IMG/VR virus record: IMGVR_UViG_3300027608_000014
Coordinates: 1 to 64,000 of that record
Strand: one strand, 5' to 3'
DNA length: 64,000 nucleotides
DNA from: a virus
The notes under the pieces were generated by a model. It ran no database searches. It had not been told where the DNA came from and was given only the letters and a program-made list of their open reading frames with translations. The translations under genes and the position numbers were made by a program. Shown here in pieces: positions 2,897 through 23,427 of this stretch (position 1 is the first letter of the stretch; each line of letters opens with the position of its first letter).

Positions 2897-3706
2897 ATGG
2901 CTATTTTCTACTGGAAAGGCGGAGTCAGCGGTGCGTGGGCCACCGCTACTAACTGGTTCAAGGATGCGGCACTTACCGTAGCTGCCGGAGCTTTCCCAAA
3001 TGACAGTGCGGCCATCGTGGTTCTTACAAATAGCGCGTCGGCCAACATTACAACTTTCGGAGCCAGCCGCAGCATCGCGGCACTTATCGACTTTACTGCA
3101 TGGGACGATGTGGGTCGTCTTACCGCTACGGATTATACCCTCACGGTTGGTTCGGCAAGTTTTCTTGCGAATTACGCAGACAACGAGGTTAGTATCATAG
3201 GTAATTGCATTTTTAGCGGAGATGGTTGCTCCAATTCCGGCACTATCGTTGGTAACTGTATTTTTAGTAACGGGTCAACTAATGGCGGCGGCACCATTAC
3301 CGGGGACTGTATTTTTAACGGGGGCGGCTCTCACAATTATGGCACTATTAACGGCGATTGCATTTTTAGTGGGGGCAGCTGTCGCAACCAAACCGGAGCC
3401 ACTATCAACGGCAACTGTATTTTTAATAGCAGCAGCGGTCGAAACTACGGCACTATTAACGGTGATTGCATTTTTGCGTCAAGCACCCGCAACTTCACCA
3501 ACGGCATCGTCACTGGAACCTGTGTTTCCAAAAGTACTAGCAGTCATTTAAGCACCAGTACTGTAAGTGGAAACGCTATTTTTCACACCGCGACGGGGAT
3601 AGAAACCGCCATGACCATCACGGGTTCAATCGTGCCTCTCGTTCCCGTTATTGCTACCGGCACAATAGGTAAAAGGCCACTAGACGTACTTGGCGCAGGA
3701 ATTTAA
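2897..3706 (+). CDS. Cys-ladder beta-helix repeat protein, putative fibre tip/adhesin (paralog 2)
   Basis: 269 aa with the same architecture as 2060..2884. Confidence 0.55.
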   Translation: MAIFYWKGGVSGAWATATNWFKDAALTVAAGAFPNDSAAIVVLTNSASANITTFGASRSIAALIDFTAWDDVGRLTATDYTLTVGSASFLANYADNEVSIIGNCIFSGDGCSNSGTIVGNCIFSNGSTNGGGTITGDCIFNGGGSHNYGTINGDCIFSGGSCRNQTGATINGNCIFNSSSGRNYGTINGDCIFASSTRNFTNGIVTGTCVSKSTSSHLSTSTVSGNAIFHTATGIETAMTITGSIVPLVPVIATGTIGKRPLDVLGAGI

Positions 3707-7149: not shown

Positions 7150-7151
7150 TT

Positions 7152-7667
7152 ATGGAACGTATCTCTGACAAGGTTCACGAACAAATCCTGCCAATTCTCA
7201 GCTTTGACCGTCGAAGGGCAGCCTGGAATACAGATTCAGCCCATCCATGTGGAGGTGAGGATCTTGACTTCAAATACTGTCTACAGACAAAAGAACAGAT
7301 AGAGAGCATGGGATGGAGATGTCTTAGAAAGGTCTCAGCATTTGAAGTCAAAGGCTGCGCCTATCACTACAAGAATCGCAAGCTAGAGTTTACTCTAATT
7401 GGAATCGCTCATCGTCTTCGACCTCATGATCCACAGGAGATCTATTTGTGGAATGAAGTCTTCAATCACATCTGTTGGATGTCAGGACGAACACCAATCA
7501 CTGAAATTCCGGAGCCGTCCATTGGCCTGCAGAGCTTCACTAAAGATGCTCCTAAGAATTGGAGACTGATTAAGGCACAGTCAGAGTGGGATAATAAGAC
7601 AGTAGAAATCGATCTGCCCGACGCCTCTGAGCCTGATTCGTTTGAGCAAGATCTAATCAATTGGTAA
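7152..7667 (+). CDS. Hypothetical protein
   Basis: 171-aa ORF starting 2 nt after the previous stop. Confidence 0.55.
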   Translation: MERISDKVHEQILPILSFDRRRAAWNTDSAHPCGGEDLDFKYCLQTKEQIESMGWRCLRKVSAFEVKGCAYHYKNRKLEFTLIGIAHRLRPHDPQEIYLWNEVFNHICWMSGRTPITEIPEPSIGLQSFTKDAPKNWRLIKAQSEWDNKTVEIDLPDASEPDSFEQDLINW

Positions 7668-8214: not shown

Positions 8215-10101
8215 ATGCCAGACCCAGCCCCTCAAACGACCACGATCGGTAGGTTGATGTTTAATTCTATCGTTCCAGAGGTGCATCGTCAGGGACTTGA
8301 TCCGAACAAGCCAATCGAGACAAAGGCTGTTAAACAAGTATTGCAAAGTGTTGCGGACGGCGACCCCGACCGCTATAAGAACATCTCTCACGCCATTCTC
8401 AATCTTGGCTCTAGGGCTGCTCTCCAGACTGAGAGCTCGCTGACCCTGAACGACCTGAGAAGTCCCATCGACAAGACCAAGCTGATGACAGAGGTAGATG
8501 CCCAGGAGAGAAGCATCTTCAGCAATCCCAATCTAAGTGAGACCGCAAAGAAGAATGAGCTGGTCAAGCTCTATGGCAAACTGTCCTCAGAGATGCCAGA
8601 GGCAATTTTCAAGGCGTCGTATGCCCAGGGCAACAGACTCTCAAACATGGTTGCCTCTGGAGCTCGTGGCAACAAGTCACAGCTCTCTAGCAACATCGGA
8701 TCTGACTGGCTAGTTCTGGATCAGAACGACAACCCCATTCCGATTCCCATCAAGCATAACTACGCAGAGGGACTGGAGAGCGCCGAGTACTTCGGCAGTG
8801 CATATGGAACAAGGAGCGGACTTGTATCGGTTAAGTTGGCTACAGCAGACAGCGGATTTGCTAGCAAGCAGTTAGCTATCGCAGCTTCAGATCTTATTGT
8901 CACCAAGCTTGACTGTGGTACAGATCGAGGCATCCCTGTAGAGGTGGGTGATGGTGAGAACATTGGAACGCTCCTGGCCAGAACGACAGGAGGATACGCT
9001 GCAGGGACCATCCTGACGGCCCGAACGCTCAAGGCCATAAAGGACGACGGAGTCAAAAACATGCTAGTCAGGTCGCCCATCACCTGTCAGGCAGAGAGCG
9101 GACTATGCGCCAAATGCTCTGGCGTTCGAGAACGAGGCACTCTTCCACCGCTATTGGACAATGTTGGACTTGCGGCATCTAGTGCGATTGGCGAGCCGTT
9201 AAGTCAAGGCGCTCTATCAGCAAAGCACAAGGCGGGAGTTGCCGGAGCCCAGACGAGGAGAGTCGGTGGATTCAAGGCTATCAACGCTCTGCTTCAGTCT
9301 CCTGAGATTTATCCAGACGGAGCGCCGGTAGCGACTCAAGATGGAGTGGTCACCAAGATTGAAGCAGCACCACAAGGCGGTCATCATGTGTACGTTGGAG
9401 ACATTAAGCACTACGCTCCACTGCAGCAGAATTTGATCATCAAGTCAGGCAGCAGACTAGAGGCTGGAGATCCTCTGACAAATGGCGTCGTCAGTCCTGC
9501 GGATGTAGTGAAGTACAAAGGAATCGGAGAGGGACGGATGCACCTACTCAAATCTCTACGGCAATCATTCATCGATAATGGCCTTCCAGATAATAGGCGT
9601 AACATTGAGGTTCTTGCTAGAGCAGCGGTAAATCACTCAACCGTGACCGACCCTGATCGAACAGACTATCTCCCTGATGAGGTCGTCCATCACTCTGCGC
9701 TGGAGAACACTTATCAGCCACACGATGACACTGTCTCTATGCATCCATCTAAGTCGTACGGCCAGTATCTTCAGAAGCCGTCTCTGTACTTTACAGTTGG
9801 AACTAGAGTGACTCCGAATGTTGCCAAGGTTATGGAGGACAATGGAGAAAATGAGATTCAAGTCTCCAAGAAGCCTGCAGGGTTCGACCCAAGCTACATT
9901 CGACTGATGGATCACGGATCCATGAAGACCGACCTTGGAGATCAACTCTCGAGCAGCTACGTCGCCAGCTCCCTGAAGGACACGGTACTTAGTGGAAAGG
10001 CAAAGGCCGATATTCACGGAACTTCACCAATGATGCCGCTGGCCTACGCCATCGAGTTTGGTCAGAAAAGCAAAGTTGACCCTAACCGTGTAGGCTACTG
10101 A
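8215..10101 (+). CDS. rpoC: Multisubunit RNA polymerase beta' subunit, C-terminal half (split beta')
   Basis: TTIGR; SGARG; bridge-helix region EGL...G.R.GL...TADSG...DCGT; Zn site RSPITC...CAKC; trigger loop IGEPLSQ...KH; IEVLAR. No NADFDGD catalytic motif. Confidence 0.9.
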   Translation: MPDPAPQTTTIGRLMFNSIVPEVHRQGLDPNKPIETKAVKQVLQSVADGDPDRYKNISHAILNLGSRAALQTESSLTLNDLRSPIDKTKLMTEVDAQERSIFSNPNLSETAKKNELVKLYGKLSSEMPEAIFKASYAQGNRLSNMVASGARGNKSQLSSNIGSDWLVLDQNDNPIPIPIKHNYAEGLESAEYFGSAYGTRSGLVSVKLATADSGFASKQLAIAASDLIVTKLDCGTDRGIPVEVGDGENIGTLLARTTGGYAAGTILTARTLKAIKDDGVKNMLVRSPITCQAESGLCAKCSGVRERGTLPPLLDNVGLAASSAIGEPLSQGALSAKHKAGVAGAQTRRVGGFKAINALLQSPEIYPDGAPVATQDGVVTKIEAAPQGGHHVYVGDIKHYAPLQQNLIIKSGSRLEAGDPLTNGVVSPADVVKYKGIGEGRMHLLKSLRQSFIDNGLPDNRRNIEVLARAAVNHSTVTDPDRTDYLPDEVVHHSALENTYQPHDDTVSMHPSKSYGQYLQKPSLYFTVGTRVTPNVAKVMEDNGENEIQVSKKPAGFDPSYIRLMDHGSMKTDLGDQLSSSYVASSLKDTVLSGKAKADIHGTSPMMPLAYAIEFGQKSKVDPNRVGY

Positions 10102-10260
10102 TGAAATGCACGCAGATTATTTTCTAATAATCAAATTTTAACTATTGTTGATCGATACAAAAGTGGAGAGTCTCTGGATTCCATTGCAAGGTCCCTTGGC
10201 ACATCAAGAGGGACGATCCTAGAGAGGTCAAAATCAAAAGTGTTAATTCTGGACGTTTTC
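10101..10260 (+). pseudogene. Frameshifted HTH remnant (possibly a homing-endonuclease relic)
   Basis: RLFSNNQILTIVDRYKSGESLDSIARSLGTSRGTIL lies in a frame blocked by TGA 10102; ATG 10101 is 1 nt out of frame. Confidence 0.45.
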
Positions 10261-10288
10261 TTTATTCAACCATACAATTCAGTTACTT

Positions 10289-12982
10289 ATGCCAAATACG
10301 CAAATTGAGCGCAGCCTTTCGGATCTAGCCATTACTAGTCTGGGAGATAAACTGCCAGGGTTGATGGAATACTTACTAGGCTTCGAGCTTGTATCAACAG
10401 GGGGTGCTGGTGAGAGTAGCGGAGCCCGTGCAGCAGGCATCCTCGGCTTTGACATTGGAGGAGAGCAGATTCTGCAGCCCGTACTGTTCCTTAATGGTCA
10501 GATCAAGGGCAATGACTGTCTGTACCTCAAAAGCTCCGATACGTTCATTTCCGCCTCTCCGGAGTGGGTTGAGTATCTAACGTCCAGGTCGACAGGCAAT
10601 CCAGGAGAGCCAAGACCAGGCGGAAGGAATCTTCCAGGTGTTCCATCGGAGTCTCTTAGGATCTTCAATCAGCCTCCCCAGATCAGCAACTCCAAGTATG
10701 CGTCTTACGGTGATGAGCTAGACAGTATCTTTGAGGAGTTCATGAATCCGCAGAGAGCAATGAGCCCAGCCTCTCCGACCTTCAATGTTCCAAATGTACT
10801 GCGCTCGATGGGCAAGGAGGCGTGCGTACACTTCATGCAGCACCTGCTCCAGGACTTCCCTGAGCTATTGGTTAAGCTGGCCGACTACTACCCAGGCGAC
10901 GAGCTAAAGATCGACTTCCCGCCAGAGCCAGTCGTCAAGACTGCTGCTGTCGTGCAGGTTCTTCCAGTGGAGTTCTCAACCCTCAAGAAAGCAGACATTG
11001 TTGATCTGGTTGGAGCCTATAAGAATCCCATGGTTGGAGTTCAGTCATATCAAAACTCTATACAACCACAGCCTGGTGGTTATGGAATGGTCCAGGGCGA
11101 TACAGCTTCTCCGAAACAGATAGGGAATCCCGAACACATCAGAACGGGGGTAACGCCAGGATTTCATGAAAAGGGAGGCGGAGAACGATTCAAAGATTAT
11201 AGTGCTACTGAGCAAGCAGTGATTACTGGAATAAAGGACTACAAAAGAGGTCTAACTGATCCAGCAGGGTTGAATGTAGACGCCTATCTGAAAAGTACGA
11301 ATAGGCCATCTCTACAAAATCCAGGAGAGATCAACACTTTTATCAAGAATATATTTCCTAAGATTACACAGGCTGGTCCATCACCATCCCTGCCCAAGAT
11401 TGCCACTCTAGTAGAGTTCTCAACCCTCAAGAACGTACAGGATCATCCAGAGCTATTCAGTCTCGAGCAGAAGCAGGCTGCCTTCCGTGGCGAACTGATC
11501 GTGATCGACAAGCGTGCCAAGGAAGAGAAGTCAGAGACGTTCTCCGACGATTATACTGAGAGATTCTCTGCTCCAACAGAGAGCGGATTCTACAAGATGA
11601 TCAACGCCTATGGAGAGCTTGAAGACGTCTTCATCGGATACAACAGCTTCCTGCTAGACAAGCCAGGCAAGAGTGTCGACGGCTGCACGATCATCGATCC
11701 ATCTAGTGGAGCGTTCTATTTGCCGATCAAGTCAGAGGAGGTCCTCGTTCGTCCGAAGAAGTCACTGAGCGACGAAGAGTTTGAGAAGAGCTTCAATAAG
11801 CTCAGCGAGATCTCGTCAGCAACAATGAACAAATGTTATGTTGCTATCTCACCTAATCGTCAGGTCAGCGCTCCTTTTGAGGTTCGCTCGAAAGACAAGT
11901 CCCCCAACTATCTAGCTCTTCGAGTCGACACTCTGTATACGTTCGAGAGCCGCATGATTGAGCAGCGTAAGGGTCGTCCAGTGTATGGACCACCACGCAG
12001 CAGCAACCATGTTCGCGGAACAACAGTTCGAATCGTAGACGCAAACGTGGGTAAGGTTACTCAACTTGGTGATGTCATCTGTGTGCCAAGCAGTTGGAGG
12101 ATCATGGAAATCGACAACAATCAGGACTTCTATGCATCTTGCTGCACCAGCAGTGATGACGCAGAGACCGCTGACAAGAAGCACAATGAGAAGGAGAAGA
12201 GAGTCCTGAGCCTCAAGCCAGGAAATATTTCCGTTCTTACTCAGGCCATCCAGGACAAGAATATCAAAGCTGTCTCTGTGGATAAGAAGGCTGGTTACTA
12301 CACCATCCTGCTCGGCAAAGGAAAGATGGCACGTTGTACTCATCCATTTAACAAGCACGCCGCTCTAGTCACTCTAGTCGGACGATTCGGTTTGTCCGAG
12401 GAGGACGCCAACGGCCTGCTCAAAAGCGCTGACGACAACGGCGCCTCCAAGTGCTGGGTAAAGATGGCAGCCATCTATGACGGCATGCCGTTCCCTAGTT
12501 ACGACAACTCCGCCGGAATGGACGAGATGGGCTACCCTGAGCAGTACAGAGTTACTGAGCAAGTAAATATTCCATTCAATAACCCGCCCATTACAGACGG
12601 ATCAGATCCAGCAATCGCTAACTACGACAAGATCAAACAGAGTGACGTCGACTTCCTGACCAGAGCTGCCGACACTAACGCGAAGAACGTATTCGATCCA
12701 GCCATGATCGGACAGATTCTTAAGACGAGCAGAACTTCGGCCATGATCGACAAGTGGCTGCCTGATCTTGTCAAAGCCATGGACTCGAGCGCCCGATTCC
12801 TATTGATGTTCTACTGGGCAAATGCCAAGTTTGCTGATATGTATGGAAGTGATGAGCTTTCCTCCCTAGAAGACTTGCTCCAAGAGAACCTATCCCAGTT
12901 GGGCAAATTGGTTCTGTTCCTCAAGCAGAAAACTGTTGAGGGCTCATCTGATCAAACCAGTGCATTCGCAAGTCGCTATTAA
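10289..12982 (+). CDS. Large putative prohead core/internal head protein with an inserted cassette
   Basis: 897 aa, in the head module. Multiple KxA sites (KYA, KTA, KKA, KIA, KMA). Duplicated VEFSTLK flanks a 148-codon insert. Confidence 0.6.
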   Translation: MPNTQIERSLSDLAITSLGDKLPGLMEYLLGFELVSTGGAGESSGARAAGILGFDIGGEQILQPVLFLNGQIKGNDCLYLKSSDTFISASPEWVEYLTSRSTGNPGEPRPGGRNLPGVPSESLRIFNQPPQISNSKYASYGDELDSIFEEFMNPQRAMSPASPTFNVPNVLRSMGKEACVHFMQHLLQDFPELLVKLADYYPGDELKIDFPPEPVVKTAAVVQVLPVEFSTLKKADIVDLVGAYKNPMVGVQSYQNSIQPQPGGYGMVQGDTASPKQIGNPEHIRTGVTPGFHEKGGGERFKDYSATEQAVITGIKDYKRGLTDPAGLNVDAYLKSTNRPSLQNPGEINTFIKNIFPKITQAGPSPSLPKIATLVEFSTLKNVQDHPELFSLEQKQAAFRGELIVIDKRAKEEKSETFSDDYTERFSAPTESGFYKMINAYGELEDVFIGYNSFLLDKPGKSVDGCTIIDPSSGAFYLPIKSEEVLVRPKKSLSDEEFEKSFNKLSEISSATMNKCYVAISPNRQVSAPFEVRSKDKSPNYLALRVDTLYTFESRMIEQRKGRPVYGPPRSSNHVRGTTVRIVDANVGKVTQLGDVICVPSSWRIMEIDNNQDFYASCCTSSDDAETADKKHNEKEKRVLSLKPGNISVLTQAIQDKNIKAVSVDKKAGYYTILLGKGKMARCTHPFNKHAALVTLVGRFGLSEEDANGLLKSADDNGASKCWVKMAAIYDGMPFPSYDNSAGMDEMGYPEQYRVTEQVNIPFNNPPITDGSDPAIANYDKIKQSDVDFLTRAADTNAKNVFDPAMIGQILKTSRTSAMIDKWLPDLVKAMDSSARFLLMFYWANAKFADMYGSDELSSLEDLLQENLSQLGKLVLFLKQKTVEGSSDQTSAFASRY
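10970..11433 (+). repeat. 20-bp direct repeat GAGTTCTCAACCCTCAAGAA flanking an in-frame insert
   Basis: Copies at 10970-10989 and 11414-11433, spacing 444 bp. Confidence 0.9.
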
Positions 12983-13000
12983 TTTTATCTAACCAATACT

Positions 13001-14632
13001 ATGTCTAATAAATTCACCCAAATCTACCTTGCCACCCTTAACAAGAAGGCTGAGGACGCAATAAGTAATCCTCCATTTGGCTATTATCCTGATACTCAAA
13101 TGAACGATTCGGTACCTGGATGGATGGGGCGAGGTGGAGATGCAGATGTTTTAACTCCAAAACCTCTGGGCCTTCAGGCTCCATTTGTTTCCCGCAGTCT
13201 CCTACCAAGTCTTTCGCCAGCCAGAGTGTATCTTTCCAGCAATCAAATTGACGACAATGGCATCAATGGCATTGCTTACATTAACGCTCCTGGAGGGATA
13301 GATAATACTAATGGTATAGGAGAACAGCCAGCTCTTCGTCCCGGATTCCCACAGACAGTAAGGTCCTCAGGAATACCTGGCGCTGAACTCTCTTTGGGAA
13401 ACATACCTCCAGACCCAACTCCTCAGCTTCGCGCTACGCCTCCAGGACTAAGGCCAGACCCATCCGCCCTAGGCAAGAAGGCTGAAGCCTTCCCAGAACC
13501 AGGTCGCTTTACTCTTGAGGGGTCTAGGCCAAGTCAGGGTGCTGCTCCAGAGATTCTTGGATCAAGACCAAGTAGCTTTACTCTTGAGCATACAGCAGCA
13601 AGGCCGACTACGGGTTTGGCCTTCACCTCTGGAGTTGATCTGCCAGCTCCTGCGCCAACTATCCTCGATTTGCTCATAAAAAATAGGCTCCTAGCTGGTG
13701 CTGGACTCGCTGCTGCTGGAGCCGCTGGCTACATGGGCTACAAAGCCTTGAGCAAAAAGAAGAAGAAGAAAGGTGACGACGACGATGACGACAAGACCGC
13801 ATCCTTCACTGAGGCCTACTACAATGGCCGTAAAGGTCCACAGTCGTACGCTGACACCTACATTGCTGCATTCCATAAGAGAGCTCAGGATGAGCCCCTT
13901 AGTGCTATTGAGCTGGATTATGGGAATATGGCGAGTAATACAGAGGCAAAGAAGAGGTTGCAGCAAACGCTCACCGACGTCGAAAGAATCCGTCGAGCTC
14001 CCGATCCCGAGCCACTGACTCGCAGACAGCGGGAGGAGGAGCTCGCAGAGGAGGATAGAGGAAACATCGCGTTGGGCGCGCCGCTTCGACCAAGTCCATA
14101 TCGGGCGCCTAAGTCCAGGAATCCAATCAATATTGCATCTGATACTGTTATGAATGGTGCCGCAGCACGCCAGTCCGCGCCAGCACAACCATCAATTCAG
14201 GACAAGGTTCTGTCAGCGGCTCGCTCAGCTGGCAACCAGATCAAGTCAACGGCCACCTCAGCAGGCAATGCGATCTCTGATGCCTATGGCCGGGCCAATG
14301 ACTCTATGGGCAGTAAGCTTGCTCCAGTAATTTATCCTAAAGTCTACGAGGAAGCCGCTGGAGTCGATCGAAACATCCCGATCCTTATGGAGAACAGTAG
14401 ATTCGCTAAGGCAATCGCTCCTTTCGATCCAAAGGCTCCACCTAAGCCAGGTCGTCAGCTCTCTGCCTTCAGTAGACTAGGAACTCCTGGATTCTCTAAG
14501 AACAAACTCAATCCTCCTCCTCAGCTTACTGGACTCGTCAACAGTGCGGCTCAGAATATGAATCCTAGTATCTCGGTTTCAACTCCCTCGGCGGCCCCGC
14601 GCTGGAACTTCACCCCCAGTGCCAATCCGTAA
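13001..14632 (+). CDS. Modular low-complexity internal-head cargo polyprotein
   Basis: Leader FTQIYLATLNKKA; segments split by KKA, KTA and KRA; one Gly/Ala TM-like helix followed by poly-K and poly-D. Confidence 0.6.
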   Translation: MSNKFTQIYLATLNKKAEDAISNPPFGYYPDTQMNDSVPGWMGRGGDADVLTPKPLGLQAPFVSRSLLPSLSPARVYLSSNQIDDNGINGIAYINAPGGIDNTNGIGEQPALRPGFPQTVRSSGIPGAELSLGNIPPDPTPQLRATPPGLRPDPSALGKKAEAFPEPGRFTLEGSRPSQGAAPEILGSRPSSFTLEHTAARPTTGLAFTSGVDLPAPAPTILDLLIKNRLLAGAGLAAAGAAGYMGYKALSKKKKKKGDDDDDDKTASFTEAYYNGRKGPQSYADTYIAAFHKRAQDEPLSAIELDYGNMASNTEAKKRLQQTLTDVERIRRAPDPEPLTRRQREEELAEEDRGNIALGAPLRPSPYRAPKSRNPINIASDTVMNGAAARQSAPAQPSIQDKVLSAARSAGNQIKSTATSAGNAISDAYGRANDSMGSKLAPVIYPKVYEEAAGVDRNIPILMENSRFAKAIAPFDPKAPPKPGRQLSAFSRLGTPGFSKNKLNPPPQLTGLVNSAAQNMNPSISVSTPSAAPRWNFTPSANP

Positions 14633-17346: not shown

Positions 17347-18285
17347 ATGGCTGACGAGGTAATTCCACAATTAAAGAGACTCCCACGATCACTAGAGGAG
17401 TCTTCTAGCTATTATCCTGACTGGCGAATGCGCCAGGTCCTGCAATATAACGCCTTAGAGGGAGCGGAGAGAGCGGCTCATGGACGAGGCTTTCAACTAC
17501 CCGACTGGGAAGATGACGAAGAGGTTCATCGCTACTTTGCGTATACCACACAGGGAGTAAGCTTTGATATAGCTGACACTAAAAGATTTTTCTATGCTGA
17601 TGAGGCCATCCAGCACAACTATCGCACAGGAGCTGCCGCCCGCATCAGATGCCTATTGATCGCTGGTGCGACACCTGACTTTGTCGCCAAGAGACTGGGA
17701 ACCAAGAAGGACCACATCGAAACCTTCTACAGGCTATACTTCGACATCGATCGGTGCTTGGACAACAAGGACTTCATGGCCAGTCTAGTATTTCCATTTG
17801 TGGTTCCCAGATCAGAGCCACCAGAGCAGAAGAAGGAGCGCCTGTGGAGAACAGGCGCCTTCCTAATGGACATCCCTGGATTCGACGCAATCTCACAGAA
17901 AAGAATCGACATGAACGCCGCTGACATCGAGAAGATGAACGGTCAGCTCAAGTCTCTAATGTACAGTCAAGGACTCGAGTACTGCTTGCACCGACGCGCA
18001 GGAATGCTTCCTGGCCCAGGAGACTTGGACAATGTCCTTGCCCATATGCAGATCCCTGCTACTGGAGACAGCGAGAGAGACAGCCAATCCTCAATCTTTA
18101 CTTCTAGTCTTGTTCAGGTGGCTGCAGAGAAATACAGCCTGACCACGACAACAAAAATCACAGATATTCAGGTTGTCTCCACTCGAATTGGACCCGCCAC
18201 TTCGTACGCTATACAAGACCTTGATTATTTTGCTGGAGACGAAGAGATAAACCAACTAGGATTACTGACTGATGAATACCGCTGA
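17347..18285 (+). CDS. Hypothetical head-module protein with an HTH-like segment
   Basis: 312 aa; GATPDFVAKRLGTKKDHIETF. Confidence 0.55.
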   Translation: MADEVIPQLKRLPRSLEESSSYYPDWRMRQVLQYNALEGAERAAHGRGFQLPDWEDDEEVHRYFAYTTQGVSFDIADTKRFFYADEAIQHNYRTGAAARIRCLLIAGATPDFVAKRLGTKKDHIETFYRLYFDIDRCLDNKDFMASLVFPFVVPRSEPPEQKKERLWRTGAFLMDIPGFDAISQKRIDMNAADIEKMNGQLKSLMYSQGLEYCLHRRAGMLPGPGDLDNVLAHMQIPATGDSERDSQSSIFTSSLVQVAAEKYSLTTTTKITDIQVVSTRIGPATSYAIQDLDYFAGDEEINQLGLLTDEYR

Positions 18286-19585
18286 ACGTAAAATTTTTGC
18301 TGCTCACAAGAAAGCTGGTCAATACTGCGTAGAGGGCCTGGACCCAACTAGCGCTCTGATCAAAGCCGCTAACCTTGATGAGCTGAATCCAGAGATGACT
18401 CGTCGAGTTTCTGAGATGTTGAATATCTCTCTCACGAAGTCCTTCATGAAGTCAGCCAGCGATAAGACCGCTAGTTTTCCTCTAGCCGACTGTGAAAAGG
18501 CAATCAAGGAAGTGTTTGCTGGAGAGGTTCACGCCAAGACAGCAGCTGTGCTCTCTGATCTTAATTGGGAGCTAGAAGGCAAGTCGCTCTCTATCACTAG
18601 AAAGATTGATACCAGCAACGACCATTCATTCTTTAAGGTTGCCAAGACAGAGACCAAAGAGGACATCAATCATCTGGTCAAGCAAGCTGAAGGGGCAAAA
18701 GACCTACTTCGCGTTGAGATCAGCAAGAGAGCTCAGGATCTACTATCCGCTGAGACTAAGGCCCTTCACACCTATACCGATATCATCTCTCACTTCAGAC
18801 AGAACGCTTACCTTCCTCAGAAGTTTGCTCAGTTCGAGGAGCGCTGCTACAGCGAGTACGGACTCGATGTCGGTCAGTATCTTGACTCGATTCACGTACA
18901 GCTAAATGAAGGCACAGATCGTGGAGACAGTGACTCTCATAAGAAGGCTTTCTACTTTGAACCAGACAGCGCTAATATCCTGTTCGATTCCCTCATGAGT
19001 CAAACAGATCAGATTAGCAAGCAGGCCTCTGAGTTGGTAATCGCCAAGGCGGCGTTCGGTAGCTTTGACTCTCAGATCAACCATTTCTATAAGCAAGCTC
19101 TTGGTGGTAAGCCCGAAGTCGCTGGCTGTGCCGGTGACATGCTCGACCTGAGTAAAAAAAAAGCTGACTTCGGCTTGCTAAGCAGTCCTCGACTGGAAGC
19201 TGCTGTTGCTTCACACGGTCAGCAAGGTTCTGACGCGTTTACCAAAGGCTTAGAGGCTGCTCAAAACAGAATCTACAAGCGTCCCGGTGATGAGACCGAC
19301 ATGGAGATGGACAATGTTCGTCGCCAAGCTATCCTAGCCGACCTGATGAGTAATGATGACATTATCTCAGGTCAGGAACCAGGCCACGTTCAGTCAGCCT
19401 ACAACACTTTGCTTTCGATCTCCCCACGCTCTACTCTGCATCGAGAGGTCGTCAGATCTGTATTGAGAAACGCAACTGCAGCTCAAGCGATCGATCCATT
19501 TACCGCCAAACAACTAGCTGACCTTGAGGGCCAGCACCTGAAGAACGAGAAGATCGAGAAGGGTCAGATGGCGGTTTCTCCATAA
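18272..19585 (+). CDS. Putative prohead core protein (KxA-rich, helical)
   Basis: 437 aa with KSA, KTA x2, KVA, KQA x3 and KKA sites; A9 run at 19154-19162. Confidence 0.6.
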   Translation: MNTAERKIFAAHKKAGQYCVEGLDPTSALIKAANLDELNPEMTRRVSEMLNISLTKSFMKSASDKTASFPLADCEKAIKEVFAGEVHAKTAAVLSDLNWELEGKSLSITRKIDTSNDHSFFKVAKTETKEDINHLVKQAEGAKDLLRVEISKRAQDLLSAETKALHTYTDIISHFRQNAYLPQKFAQFEERCYSEYGLDVGQYLDSIHVQLNEGTDRGDSDSHKKAFYFEPDSANILFDSLMSQTDQISKQASELVIAKAAFGSFDSQINHFYKQALGGKPEVAGCAGDMLDLSKKKADFGLLSSPRLEAAVASHGQQGSDAFTKGLEAAQNRIYKRPGDETDMEMDNVRRQAILADLMSNDDIISGQEPGHVQSAYNTLLSISPRSTLHREVVRSVLRNATAAQAIDPFTAKQLADLEGQHLKNEKIEKGQMAVSP

Positions 19586-19593
19586 GCATAACT

Positions 19594-20661
19594 ATGAACA
19601 AATTAGCTTTCTTAGACTCTATTCGTCAGGGTATTCGGGGCATAGTTGACAAGGGCTACAATGCTGTCAACGATGCTGCCAAGAGTCTTACCCAAGGGAA
19701 TCTTGATCCTCGGACTGGAACTTATCCCGCTGACGGACTGTCACTGGACCAACTTGGCAATAAGTACCACGACAATCTCGTTTACGGCCTAGCCGGAACA
19801 GCTGTCGGTGGCGGTATTGGTGCACTCACTACTGACACTGAAGAGGATAAAACATTTGGAGATAAACTCAGACATCGTCTACGTAATGCGCTTACTGGCG
19901 GTATTGCTGGCGGTGCCGTGGGACTTGGTGGAAAGGTATTTGTTGATAGCTACGTCACTAAGCCAGATCTCCCTAAGAGGCCTTCTTACTATGGTGCTGA
20001 ACTGGGAAAGAAAGTTGATAACTTTTTTGGAGTCAACAAAAATGAAAGTCTGACCGTCGAACAGGTAGCAAATCGAGCAAGGGCGGAAGCGACAGCCAAA
20101 CCGGGCGCGACACCGAAGTCTATTGATGCGGATGTAAAAGCGGCTGTTGAGGCCACAACCGCTCCTCTTGGACCTGTAGAGACCGCCGTCGCGATAGCTA
20201 ATCCAATGACAGGCTCAGAGGTTGGTAGGTCCGCTAGCGGTGCATTGATTGCAGGGACCCTTGGAGAGGGGGTCGTCCGCCTTGGTAATAATAGGATAGA
20301 TCCTATTGTTGTGAGCGATAACGTGAGTAAAAGACTGAATGACTTCAAGCTTACCAGGATGACTACAGGAACGCCAGGTGCCCCAGGAATAGCAGCTATC
20401 GATCCTGCACTAAAAGCCCCCGGCGCTGAATCTCCTTATCGTAAAGGATTCTCTCTGAAAAGACTAACCAACCAGCAGGCGCTTGATGAGATGACTCTAC
20501 TGAGAGACTCACCAAAGCCAGGAACAAGGGCTCTCAAGAGATACGGCCTTACAAATAGAATGCCGATCGGAAAGGGACCCAGGGCCCTTCAGGCTCTAGC
20601 TGCATTTGCGGGACTAGTTGGCGCCAACGTGGTCGGAAAACCCAACGTAGAACCCAAGTAA
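19594..20661 (+). CDS. Glycine-zipper internal/ejection-like protein
   Basis: MNKLA start; GLAGTAVGGGIGAL and GGIAGGAVGLGG hydrophobic glycine zippers. Confidence 0.55.
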   Translation: MNKLAFLDSIRQGIRGIVDKGYNAVNDAAKSLTQGNLDPRTGTYPADGLSLDQLGNKYHDNLVYGLAGTAVGGGIGALTTDTEEDKTFGDKLRHRLRNALTGGIAGGAVGLGGKVFVDSYVTKPDLPKRPSYYGAELGKKVDNFFGVNKNESLTVEQVANRARAEATAKPGATPKSIDADVKAAVEATTAPLGPVETAVAIANPMTGSEVGRSASGALIAGTLGEGVVRLGNNRIDPIVVSDNVSKRLNDFKLTRMTTGTPGAPGIAAIDPALKAPGAESPYRKGFSLKRLTNQQALDEMTLLRDSPKPGTRALKRYGLTNRMPIGKGPRALQALAAFAGLVGANVVGKPNVEPK

Positions 20662-21989
20662 TGGACAAGATTGTTTTCAACGACAGCTTCGACTATGGAA
20701 CTGATCTTCCACTGGCCACCATCGCTGATGATCCAATGGTCCTGCGTAAGTGCGCTTCGTCTGTCTCGGATGGATGGGGCAAGATTGACCCAATCAAGGA
20801 TCACACGTTGATTCATCTAATTGCCCTAGGCGCCCACGAGAAGACTGGTCGTAATAGAAATGCAGACTCTTGGAGAGAAAATGTTCTCAGGCAGAAGCAC
20901 GGAACATTCAAGACCCACGGCAAGCTCTACCACAACCATCTGGCAGAAGAGGGCAAGGAAGAGGGCTTCGTCCACAAGACCGCCTTCAACGAAGACATGG
21001 GCCGTGCAGAACTGGTCATTGCTGCAGATAACGATAAGTGCGCCGCCTGGCTGGGAGACGTTGAAAAAGGGAAACCAGTGAGTTTCTCCATGGGATTCAA
21101 GTGTACTCATCCAGGAGACGAGTGCTCTATCTGTGGTAACTTTGCAGCTAAGAGAGAAGATTACTGCAAGCATCTAAAGAAGAACGCCTCAGCACCGTAC
21201 GGACTGAATCGAATTCTTCCCGATGGTCGTGCGTGTTTTGCTTTCAACGATGCGGGATTCTTTAACGACATCTCCAAGGTTCCTATTGGCGCTGATCAAA
21301 TCGCCATGGGCCTTCGCAAGGTTGCGTCTCTGTCTTCCGATGAAGTGATCGGTGGAGCAGAACTAGCTGAGCAATACTTCATTCATCACAGCGATGTGGA
21401 TCACGGCAAGGTTGCCATCGTTCTAAAGCTGGCTGACATCGAGAAACGCATTGAGTCGATCGGTACTGGCATCAAGGGATCTAGAAAGAGATCCCTCTGC
21501 AAGGTGGCGATGGACAAACTTCGTGAAGCTCCAACTAAAGAAATGTTCCTCGAGCTGTCCAAGCTGGGAGCTATTCTGCCGATGGTCGATTTTTACAAAC
21601 TTGTTTTTGGTTCGGAATTTGCGAATCACGAACGCGCCATCAATAAGGCCGCAAGCTACGAGGCAAACTTTTTTTTAGCTATTGCAGCCGACAAGGAGAG
21701 ACTGCGCAGCGTGTGCTCCAATACTACCTACGATCCTGCACCCATTAGCCACGTTCGTTTGGACTACGAAAGTAAGCGAGCAATTGCAGCTGAGTATTCT
21801 ATTGATACTGAGCTTGCCGCAGATCGCGCCATTAAGCGTGCAGCTTTGCTTGACAGTATTCCTCCAGCGAATACTATTTCATCCCAAGATAACTATCTGA
21901 TCGACCAATACGGCGCTTACAAAATTAGCGCGTTGAAGGCGATCAGCCCAGAAGTGAACGACGAAATTCTTTTTGCATCACTTATTTAG
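20661..21989 (+). CDS. Prohead (capsid maturation) serine protease with Zn-finger insertion
   Basis: NRNAD...YHNH (His)...VSFSMG (Ser)...CSICGN...CKH...DIS. Lies upstream of scaffold and capsid genes. Confidence 0.75.
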   Translation: MDKIVFNDSFDYGTDLPLATIADDPMVLRKCASSVSDGWGKIDPIKDHTLIHLIALGAHEKTGRNRNADSWRENVLRQKHGTFKTHGKLYHNHLAEEGKEEGFVHKTAFNEDMGRAELVIAADNDKCAAWLGDVEKGKPVSFSMGFKCTHPGDECSICGNFAAKREDYCKHLKKNASAPYGLNRILPDGRACFAFNDAGFFNDISKVPIGADQIAMGLRKVASLSSDEVIGGAELAEQYFIHHSDVDHGKVAIVLKLADIEKRIESIGTGIKGSRKRSLCKVAMDKLREAPTKEMFLELSKLGAILPMVDFYKLVFGSEFANHERAINKAASYEANFFLAIAADKERLRSVCSNTTYDPAPISHVRLDYESKRAIAAEYSIDTELAADRAIKRAALLDSIPPANTISSQDNYLIDQYGAYKISALKAISPEVNDEILFASLI

Positions 21990-22029
21990 TTGCAGCGTAA
22001 CAATCTATCCCATAACATCCACTAAACAT

Positions 22030-23427
22030 ATGCATAAACAAGCGTCAGTAGGCAGTATCCTAGACTCCTTTTCAAAGTTCTACAGTCCCAAGACGGCAGG
22101 TCATGACTCTCAGGGCTTTCACGAATCACCCGCTCCTGCTACCAAGACGGACGAGGAAACTGCATCAGCTCTAATTACTCCAGGAACTAACGTTCCTAAT
22201 GCCGTCAACTCCGCTGGAGTTGACGCAGGAACATCGATGTCCTGTTGCCCCGCTAACATCCCAACTGAAGAGCTCGTCCGCAAGGAACAGAGTGTGTCGG
22301 CCAAGATCGCTGCGGCTCCAGGTAGCGTTGAAGAGCTAGTCAGTCGACTCTCTGGTAATCTTCTCAAGATCGCTGGAGGCGAAACACTGGCAGCCCAGAC
22401 GGTGGAACCGGTGGAACCAGTAGAAGCCAACAAAGTTGCTTCTGTCATTTCCGAAGTAAATATTGATCTTCTAGCGCAGAAGACAGCAGCCTTTCTAGCG
22501 GCCACCGAGTTTGGTTATAATAAAGCCAAGGAAGTCTTTGCTCCTCAGACCAAGATCGCAGCTCCCTCGCTCACTCTCCCAGAAGACATCGAGGCTCGTA
22601 TCGAAAGTCGAGTTTACGAACTCAAGACTGCAGGCCTAAACGACCAGCAGATCTACGCTCAGCTTCAGGCTGACGGTCAGGCTGACGCAGAGATCCTGAC
22701 AAAAGAGGCCGAAGTTGCGGAAATCACCCGGCACAATCTGGCATCGTTTGTTGAGCAGAAAATTGCAGCGCAACTTAATGCTGGCACCATTTCCTCACAA
22801 CAGGCTGAGATTCTACTGACCGATCTAGGTTATGAAACTGATACCGTCAAGCTAGCCAGCATCGAGCAGGCAGTTGATCATAAGGTTGCTTCACTCCGTC
22901 ATCAGTATCCAGCGATTACTGACGAGCAGATTATGGAAGTTCTCCAGAAAGACGCTGAGGCTGACGCCGCAGCGATGGTTGATCCAAATGCGATGCCTCC
23001 AAATGAAATGGTCGATCCAAATGCGATGTATCCAGATGAGAGGCCTCCAGGCGAGATGCCTCCAGGTGCCGAAGGTGAAATGCCTGCAGGTGCTGAAGAA
23101 GAATTGGCCGCTCAATTGCAGCAGGCCATTGCTGAACTACAGCAGGCAGTTGAAGCGGGACAGATGACTGAAGAGCAGGCTCTACAGTTGCTTGAAGAGG
23201 CCGGTCTAGACGTTCAAGGGATGCTCGCTGCTGCAGGCGCTGCGCTTGAAGCCCCAGTCGCTGAAGGTGCAGAGGCTCTTCCAGCCGATGCCTACGCAGC
23301 TGAGGAGGGGGCCGAAAAGAAAGAAGCCGCTCTGACCGATCTCATTGCTGCAGCTGACAGGGCTTATCTAGCGGGTAGTCTCACTAAGGCTCAGGCCAAT
23401 TCAATGGTCGCAGCTCTCAAAGCTTAA
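22030..23427 (+). CDS. Capsid scaffolding protein
   Basis: Start reassigned to ATG 22030. Acidic Ala/Glu/Gln-rich and helical; 14 of 22 Lys are in KxA; sits between protease and capsid genes. Confidence 0.7.
   Translation: MHKQASVGSILDSFSKFYSPKTAGHDSQGFHESPAPATKTDEETASALITPGTNVPNAVNSAGVDAGTSMSCCPANIPTEELVRKEQSVSAKIAAAPGSVEELVSRLSGNLLKIAGGETLAAQTVEPVEPVEANKVASVISEVNIDLLAQKTAAFLAATEFGYNKAKEVFAPQTKIAAPSLTLPEDIEARIESRVYELKTAGLNDQQIYAQLQADGQADAEILTKEAEVAEITRHNLASFVEQKIAAQLNAGTISSQQAEILLTDLGYETDTVKLASIEQAVDHKVASLRHQYPAITDEQIMEVLQKDAEADAAAMVDPNAMPPNEMVDPNAMYPDERPPGEMPPGAEGEMPAGAEEELAAQLQQAIAELQQAVEAGQMTEEQALQLLEEAGLDVQGMLAAAGAALEAPVAEGAEALPADAYAAEEGAEKKEAALTDLIAAADRAYLAGSLTKAQANSMVAALKA

Follow-up and report, generated by a model that had tools for sequence, protein, structure and literature searches.

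In the genome of an uncultured virus (IMG/VR record IMGVR_UViG_3300027608_000014; 148,872 bp), whose first 64 kb constitute the window analysed here (64,000 nucleotides), the open reading frame (ORF) at positions 10289-12982 encodes a conserved protein, hereafter the carrier, that is interrupted by an additional segment of 148 codons. Comparison with relatives indicates that this segment is a real and recent in-frame insertion, and not an integral domain of the protein. On balance, it is probably a foreign insertion that was tolerated in a disposable and probably protease-processed propeptide or spacer of a head-module protein. This explanation requires no function of the insert.

The inserted segment and its empty sites

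The genome contains exact copies of the 20-nt sequence GAGTTCTCAACCCTCAAGAA at two places only, 10970-10989 and 11414-11433, as part of a longer repeat of 27 nts (10963-10989 and 11407-11433), in which 25 of the 27 positions are identical. The two copies are separated by 444 nts, i.e., 148 codons, lie in frame within the carrier ORF and both encode EFSTLK (residues 228-233 and 376-381). The original prediction, which was made from this DNA before the present analysis, had pointed to the duplication of EFSTLK, and its length is indeed beyond chance: in 1000 codon shuffles of the carrier ORF the longest repeat was 17 nts and 20 nts were never reached. The KKA and KIA tripeptides that were proposed to open and close the insert are also present, at 10985-10993 and 11396-11404, respectively. 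Similarly, the suspected AT-richness of the segment was confirmed, with a GC content of 0.441 and a GC content at third codon positions (GC3) of 0.345, compared with 0.528 and 0.500 (GC) and 0.584 and 0.600 (GC3) in the two flanks. The mean GC3 of the coding sequences of the genome is 0.507, and the insert falls within the lowest 0.8% of coding windows. Across the segment only the carrier frame is open, the other five being full of stop codons.

The strongest indication of an insertion comes from relatives with an empty site. The locus L001 is 92-95% identical to the window at the DNA level in the polymerase gene upstream of the carrier and in the C-terminal part of the carrier gene, and reads through a single repeat copy without the insert (...KKTAALAQTHPLKFSTLKSVQDHPELF). 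The left flank of the window, KTAAVVQVLPVEFSTLK, aligns without gap with the spacer of L001, KTAALAQTHPLKFSTLK, and BLAST homology between the two resumes at position 11412 of the window, at the start of the right repeat. No counterpart of the 148 residues is present in the four full-length homologues closest to the carrier (P0003-P0006; 727-757 residues, 52-56% identity in the alignment), in which the L-x-F-x-T-L strand occurs once, and the segment is likewise missing from P0010. By parsimony on the empty sites of L001 and of these homologues, the segment was most likely gained in the lineage of the window after its split from L001. The insertion proposed by the original prediction is thereby upheld by the comparison of homologues. 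An identical gene, with zero mismatches over 8.3-8.7 kb, is present in an ENA, a JGI and a Logan assembly, which may derive from non-independent samples; since three other assemblies thus agree, an assembly artefact is rejected.

No relative of the insert was detected in an exhaustive HMMER search of 1.84 billion protein representatives, where the only match (P0017) was a tandem-repeat artefact; at that database size matches are estimated to be listed from about 40 bits, judging from a 42-bit match at E 8e-6. Scans of the IMG/VR and JGI metagenomes gave no relative either, and six-frame and blastn searches of the virus genome itself revealed no further copy or relative. A tblastn search against phages returned only noise at E 3-9 (a pilot protein of a microvirus and a tail protein of a Bacillus phage, without common motif). 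Short protein fragments spanning the insertion site were also searched for and none was found. A tandem duplication of carrier sequence was discarded, the insert being without similarity to its flanks.

Taken alone, an orphan insertion in a variable linker amounts to ordinary phage mosaicism. With its empty site, an intact scar of 20-27 bp and a composition that is still foreign, the present case is nonetheless a clean and datable example of a phage protein gaining a new segment.

A variable spacer and a putative propeptide

The carrier is a single-copy protein conserved in a clade of giant phages and belongs to no named family; homologues were found in a protein collection (14) and in IMG/VR (39 loci). 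An N-terminal region of about 215 residues, conserved across the family from residue 1-2, is followed by a spacer and then by a folded C-terminal body. In the structure model, confidence is low where the first repeat copy is located, while the second copy forms a strand of the body (residues 375-379). The carrier has no match in Pfam, PHROGs, NCBIfam or PDB sequences, and no named fold was found with Foldseek (PDB), BFVD, VIA-align (wide search and second look) or the Atlas shape search, the matches being restricted to a generic helical hairpin (residues 814-890) and to unnamed phage proteins. An Atlas feature search with the homologue P0005 gave no usable match. No portal protein was among the Foldseek, VIA-align, BFVD and Atlas matches of the carrier model (predicted template modelling score, pTM, 0.37); Portal_T4 (PF07230) is absent from the genome and no other portal candidate turned up.

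The insert lies in the most variable part of this family. Among 44 aligned members, between 18 and 205 residues separate the last helix of the N-terminal region from the conserved strand, and this stretch cannot be aligned between subgroups. In answer to the suggestion that homologues might harbour different passengers, unrelated segments were indeed found at the same place in other relatives. The spacer of P0011 contains a glycine-zipper DUF6861 match above cut-off, that of P0013 a sub-threshold KOW-like match, and Cys-rich stretches are present in P0014, L011:2974-5487, L025:2890-5706 and L037:2788-5676. These Cys-rich stretches, in distant family members, resemble small zinc-binding modules (e.g., CKDC...C...C). 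In six further homologues with long spacers, Pfam gave no named domain. The insertion also marks, in a conserved giant-phage protein, a single position at which up to about 200 residues can be accommodated; this position could serve for display or cargo engineering when the identity of the carrier has been established.

Gain flanked by repeats may have recurred at this hotspot, as suggested by two weaker cases. Compared with P0015 (L054), P0013 (L053:1501-4137) carries an extra KOW-like piece of 81 codons, flanked by an in-frame 10-nt repeat, CGGCGACAAG, whose copies are 243 nts apart; its downstream end has the better copy of the spacer-end motif (KAVEAADGDK versus EKRAADGDK). Relative to P0008, the spacer end of P0009 looks tandemly duplicated, with IAPAPMPEHGSLRAPTL followed by ITPAPIKPIGTPGVSSLSAPKL (alignment A1, columns ~400-470).

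The tripeptide KxA, which brackets the insert, is itself unevenly distributed in this genome. When 139 ORFs were compared with composition-preserving shuffles, five exceeded the threshold of z > 3.5 (z 3.7-6.1; 2.5-5 times the expectation), four of them in the head module, and all others were at expectation. Every homologue of the carrier has 2-4 times the expected number of KxA. In 39 of the 44 homologues a KxA is found within the last 30 residues of the spacer, whereas 500 shuffles gave 15 on average and 24 at most. Members with long spacers have one KxA after the N-terminal region and one before the strand, with few in between. The motif is thus over-represented in predicted head proteins and placed at domain borders, which is the pattern taken here to characterize a processed propeptide, and the enrichment is a candidate signature of head-protease substrates. 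Trimming of the carrier at KxA is therefore considered plausible. A propeptide would also fit the gene's position at the front of the head module and a spacer of free length that is marked by KxA and precedes a conserved body. Combined with this enrichment, the insertion leads to a prediction that can be tested by mass spectrometry, namely a possible new specificity of a head protease.

According to this explanation, foreign coding DNA would have entered the spacer between the N-terminal region and the body, the part of the carrier that appears to tolerate almost any sequence, and its insertion would have duplicated 20-27 bp of the target. Entry could have occurred by the repair of a staggered break or by a template switch, and another allele of the same gene is a possible donor, since the insert end, SLPKIATLVEF, is partly similar to the ends of the P0008 and P0009 spacers. 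The downstream copy of the repeat, together with KIA, would rebuild the native start of the body (V-E-F-S-T-L-K, the first strand), and the upstream copy would persist as spacer. The N-terminal region and the spacer would together form a propeptide, trimmed by the head protease at exposed KxA sites, and the 14.7-kDa insert (residues 236-372) would be removed with it, which would make it harmless. Such an insertion would require only that the frame stays open and that the junction to the body is rebuilt.

There is a precedent for such processing in the phages SPN3US, phiKZ and 201phi2-1, in which portal, capsid and ejection proteins lose N-terminal propeptides of 111-254 residues to the prohead protease (PMC10052503). 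Cleavage of these propeptides takes place at several AXE sites, and the majority of the fragments do not stay in the head; the SPN3US portal gp81, for example, loses an N-terminal propeptide of 254 residues (PMC10052503). The carrier resembles the substrates of the SPN3US protease gp245 (including gp81, and their phiKZ and 201phi2-1 homologues; PMC10052503) in having a long N-terminal region before a conserved body. In both cases a short motif is over-represented in a few head proteins, including the protease itself, and the propeptides of that system are, as would be expected here, long and cut at several sites. The motif differs, being AXE there and, as a candidate, KxA here, and no homology to gp81 or gp245 was detected.

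A second parallel concerns the internal proteins and Alt of phage T4, which bear a capsid-targeting sequence, are processed by gp21 and are encoded at hyperplastic loci. In T4 as in the proposed scheme, variable modules enter the prohead attached to a conserved part, from which they are separated at protease sites. The difference is that a single module is found here inside a conserved single-copy protein and not in a cargo polyprotein, that the repeated word occurs nowhere else in this genome and that neither a donor nor a second carrier of the module was found.

Several points weigh against the propeptide explanation. The cleavage at KxA is argued from sequence, the head location of the carrier from gene order and from an enrichment that is common to head-module genes, and the carrier has no recognisable portal fold or other known fold. 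The assignment of the protease is weak (E 8.4e-4). Moreover, three KxA motifs of the carrier are conserved (K136-x-A138, K689-x-A691 and K725-x-A727) and K689 and K725 are in confidently folded parts; because conserved motifs lie inside folded parts, KxA cannot simply be equated with a cut site. A target duplication of 20-27 bp is long for known insertion mechanisms, and the segment could instead have come from another allele of the gene, as the KIA region partly resembles the ends of the spacers in P0008 and P0009. Finally, a scaffold gap of 100 N ends 40 nts upstream of the empty site in L001, the junction itself being continuous sequence.

The conserved motifs within folded regions also speak for an alternative that is considered rather unlikely: the insert would escape excision and remain part of the mature protein, forming an additional loop or small decoration domain between two domains that is neutral or has acquired a binding role, and KxA would have another meaning. 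This alternative is consistent with an N-terminus whose conservation is compatible with a retained domain and with the presence of small modules at the same place in relatives (DUF6861, KOW-like and Cys-rich). It accounts less readily for the confinement of KxA enrichment to the carrier, three other head-module genes and one gene elsewhere, and for the conserved position of KxA at the spacer ends amid variable surroundings, as expected of processing sites.

Possible function and origin of the insert

The original prediction had further assigned the insert to a lysozyme-like domain, on the basis of a resemblance to the pattern beginning with NNPGNIR. The pattern itself proved to be that of a real and large phage family, for which a degenerate search retrieved at least 115 IMG/VR loci (L056-L170). 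The domain, of about 115 residues, is found in stand-alone proteins of 130-145 residues or inside tape-measure, head and injection proteins. It is contained in PHROGs 873, 2276, 7182, 992 and 7694, with annotations including endolysin, tape measure and tail injection transglycosylase, and is named “structural protein” or “structural protein P5” in the sources; it is matched by more than 3000 small proteins. No model of this domain exists in Pfam or NCBIfam, a literature search on the NNPGNI motif found nothing relevant, and no direct evidence of a hydrolase activity of the domain itself was found.

The membership of the insert in this family is much less clear. Its size is in the same range (about 115-140 residues) and the order of motifs is similar, GNPEHIR corresponding to NNPGNIR, with four of the seven residues in common, and ERFKDY to F..F; G-L-N, R-P and FIKNI stand where the family has the conserved G..T, AP and YI..V. 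Against a custom hidden Markov model (HMM) of 98 NNPGNIR domains the insert scored 3.2 bits, a value equalled by 18 of 3000 shuffles, and it was the top window of the whole genome against this profile (3.1-3.2 bits), the runner-up reaching 2.9 bits. In hhalign, the comparison gave P 0.018-0.021 and a probability of 2-3%. These profile scores are at noise level. In addition, the invariants of the family alignment (A3) are N-N-P-G-N-I-R, Gly43, Ala46, Ala71-Pro72 and Tyr81, the seven motif columns being invariant by construction as the members were selected by the exact motif, and Gly43 and Ala71-Pro72 have no counterpart in the insert in the hhalign alignment. The likeness is thus a lead with nominal support (P about 0.006-0.02), and true homology is judged possible but doubtful.

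Nor was the lysozyme-like assignment sustained by other searches. The insert matched no family in Pfam (E <=10), PHROGs (E <=1; the five models with the NNPGNIR domain were among those compared), NCBIfam or PDB sequences. The SLT (PF01464) and Phage_lysozyme2 (PF18013) profiles found nothing in the whole genome at E <=10, whereas controls responded. The language-model neighbours of the insert in the Atlas feature search were clusters of viral SLT and Phage_lysozyme2 proteins (0.80 and 0.79), a score of 0.80 being reached by a third of shuffled proteins. The AlphaFold model had a predicted local distance difference test (pLDDT) score of 41 for the insert alone and of 25-37 within the whole protein, so that no fold search could be based on it. 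In composition, the insert lies at the border between order and disorder.

It was also proposed that the insert is a folded passenger, a lysozyme-like or NNPGNIR-type wall hydrolase that would be freed at KKA and KIA, packaged and active at infection. The KxA motifs at both ends would release a product of 14.7 kDa with an isoelectric point of 8.8 (residues 236-372), the frame has remained open over 148 codons with the other five closed, and the NNPGNIR family is genuinely virion-associated; the top rank of the insert in the genome and its language-model neighbours point in the same direction. Set against this are the blank profile searches, the narrow lead of the insert over the runner-up window, the unmatched family invariants, the unusable model and the lack of evidence for an enzymatic activity of the NNPGNIR domain. 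Furthermore, in the best-studied giant phages the excised propeptides are for the most part lost from the head (PMC10052503), and this speaks against a delivery of the insert. The passenger is hence regarded as improbable.

A broader scheme is speculative and, taken as a whole, quite unlikely to hold. It supposes that in-frame gains of KxA-bracketed segments in the disposable spacer of an essential head protein are a general route by which the clade would acquire small proteins and load them into the prohead, that the target duplication would rebuild the cleavage site and the first strand, the head protease later freeing the segments, and that the present insert would be a very diverged, recently captured wall-active module of NNPGNIR type.

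The opposite polarity, in which the long form would be ancestral and recombination between the direct repeats would have removed the segment from the relatives, is very improbable. An exact 20-nt repeat with copies 444 nts apart would allow an in-frame deletion, and P0008 and P0009, relatives with 38-39% identity, have spacer ends (SLSAPKLAALEF) similar to the insert end SLPKIATLVEF. However, L001, P0003-P0006 and P0010 are all without the segment, so that several independent and precise losses would be needed. In L001, the single copy has 3 mismatches to the 20-nt word and the spacer runs colinear with the left flank of the window; the GC3 of the insert is foreign to the genome and no relative has a homologue of it.

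A mobile element (miniature inverted-repeat transposable element (MITE) or other transposon, intron or intein) or an assembly artefact is almost certainly not the explanation: the flanking repeats do resemble a target-site duplication and the composition is foreign, but the segment is single-copy, without terminal inverted repeats or Rfam match, with ordinary RNA folding and ends incompatible with an intein, and is identical in three assemblies.

Each type of element was considered individually. Inteins were recognised by a Cys, Ser or Thr as first residue, a terminal His-Asn, a +1 nucleophile and a Hint domain; the segment starts with K-A-D-I-V, ends with ..A-T-L-V followed by E, lacks His-Asn and has no Hint or intein match in Pfam. 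For a transposon or MITE, no copy was found in the collections and a target duplication of 20-27 bp is atypically long. A self-splicing intron was rejected, with no Rfam match at E <=1 in 10000-13200, a folding energy of z -0.13 and a frame that is open in phase. The insert is reminiscent of in-frame repeat elements, such as the Rickettsia palindromic elements and phage hairpins similar to repetitive extragenic palindromic (REP) elements, in that foreign DNA lies in frame and is translated along with the host protein, which is not destroyed by it. Those elements are short, palindromic and multi-copy, in contrast to an insert of 444 bp that is single-copy and without palindrome or inverted ends.

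Features of the window and neighbouring genes

The source virus appears to be a very divergent giant phage, most of whose proteins are without family match. The carrier ORF is the first of a long run of genes on the + strand, within which the candidate head protease is also located. Further along the window are a baseplate wedge gene, tail-fibre genes and glycosyltransferases, and replication genes are present beyond it. The features discussed are listed below.

Table. Coordinates of the insertion, of its carrier and of related genes (positions above 64,000 are genome positions)
Feature	Position	Strand	KxA observed/expected	Evidence and remarks
RNA polymerase beta' subunit, C-terminal half or fragment	8215..10101	+		Upstream neighbour of the carrier; synteny kept in relatives
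Carrier gene, 897 residues (P0001)	10289..12982	+	14/4.2	ORF and translation; single-copy conserved protein
KTA (K217-A219), original short spacer	10937..10945	+		Matches KTA of L001 (92-95% relative) and of P0005
Left repeat copy, 27 nts (exact core 10970-10989)	10963..10989	+		Encodes ..PVEFSTLK; continuous with the ancestral spacer
KKA (K233-A235)	10985..10993	+		Arises at the left junction; opens the segment
Unique inserted DNA	10990..11406	+		Low GC3; only carrier frame open; no detectable relatives
Insert core, GNPEHIR ... FIKNIF	11123..11356	+		Resembles the NNPGNIR domain; candidate homology only
KIA (K370-A372)	11396..11404	+		Closes the segment; 3 residues ahead of the right EFSTLK; most homologues have KxA there
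Right repeat copy	11407..11433	+		Encodes ..LVEFSTLK, first strand of the folded C-terminal body
Head-module gene	18272-19585		14/4.0	KxA-enriched
Candidate head-maturation protease	20661..21989	+	11/4.2	Weak PHROG match (phrog_18299, E 8.4e-4)
Scaffold-like gene	21973-23427		14/4.2	KxA-enriched head-module gene
Gene outside the head module	83582-84550	-	11/2.3	KxA-enriched
Large terminase	86474-88276	-		Beyond the window

The relative L001 also differs from the window upstream of the carrier, where L001:262-3222 faces positions 7150-7663: the relative has an extra block of about 3 kb in place of about 0.5 kb in the window. This block lies between an exonuclease and the genes preceding the polymerase fragment, and contains an ORF of 253 residues, an NAD-dependent epimerase/dehydratase and a methyltransferase with multiple hits.

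Other exact direct repeats of 20-70 nts occur in the window at 457/1210, 831/1614, 2588/3200, 2627/3287, 15533/15653, 16814/16973 and 39801/39976. Some of them are in-frame internal duplications of the ORF at 22-2058, the adjacent paralogues at 2060-2884 and 2897-3706 have repeat words in common, and those at 15-17 kb and 39.7-40 kb correspond to tandem modules within genes. Beyond the window, an exact 26-nt repeat at genome positions 67393 and 71447, which ends with the T-arm-like sequence GGTTCAAATCC, suggests the presence of a tRNA gene cluster at about 67-72 kb.

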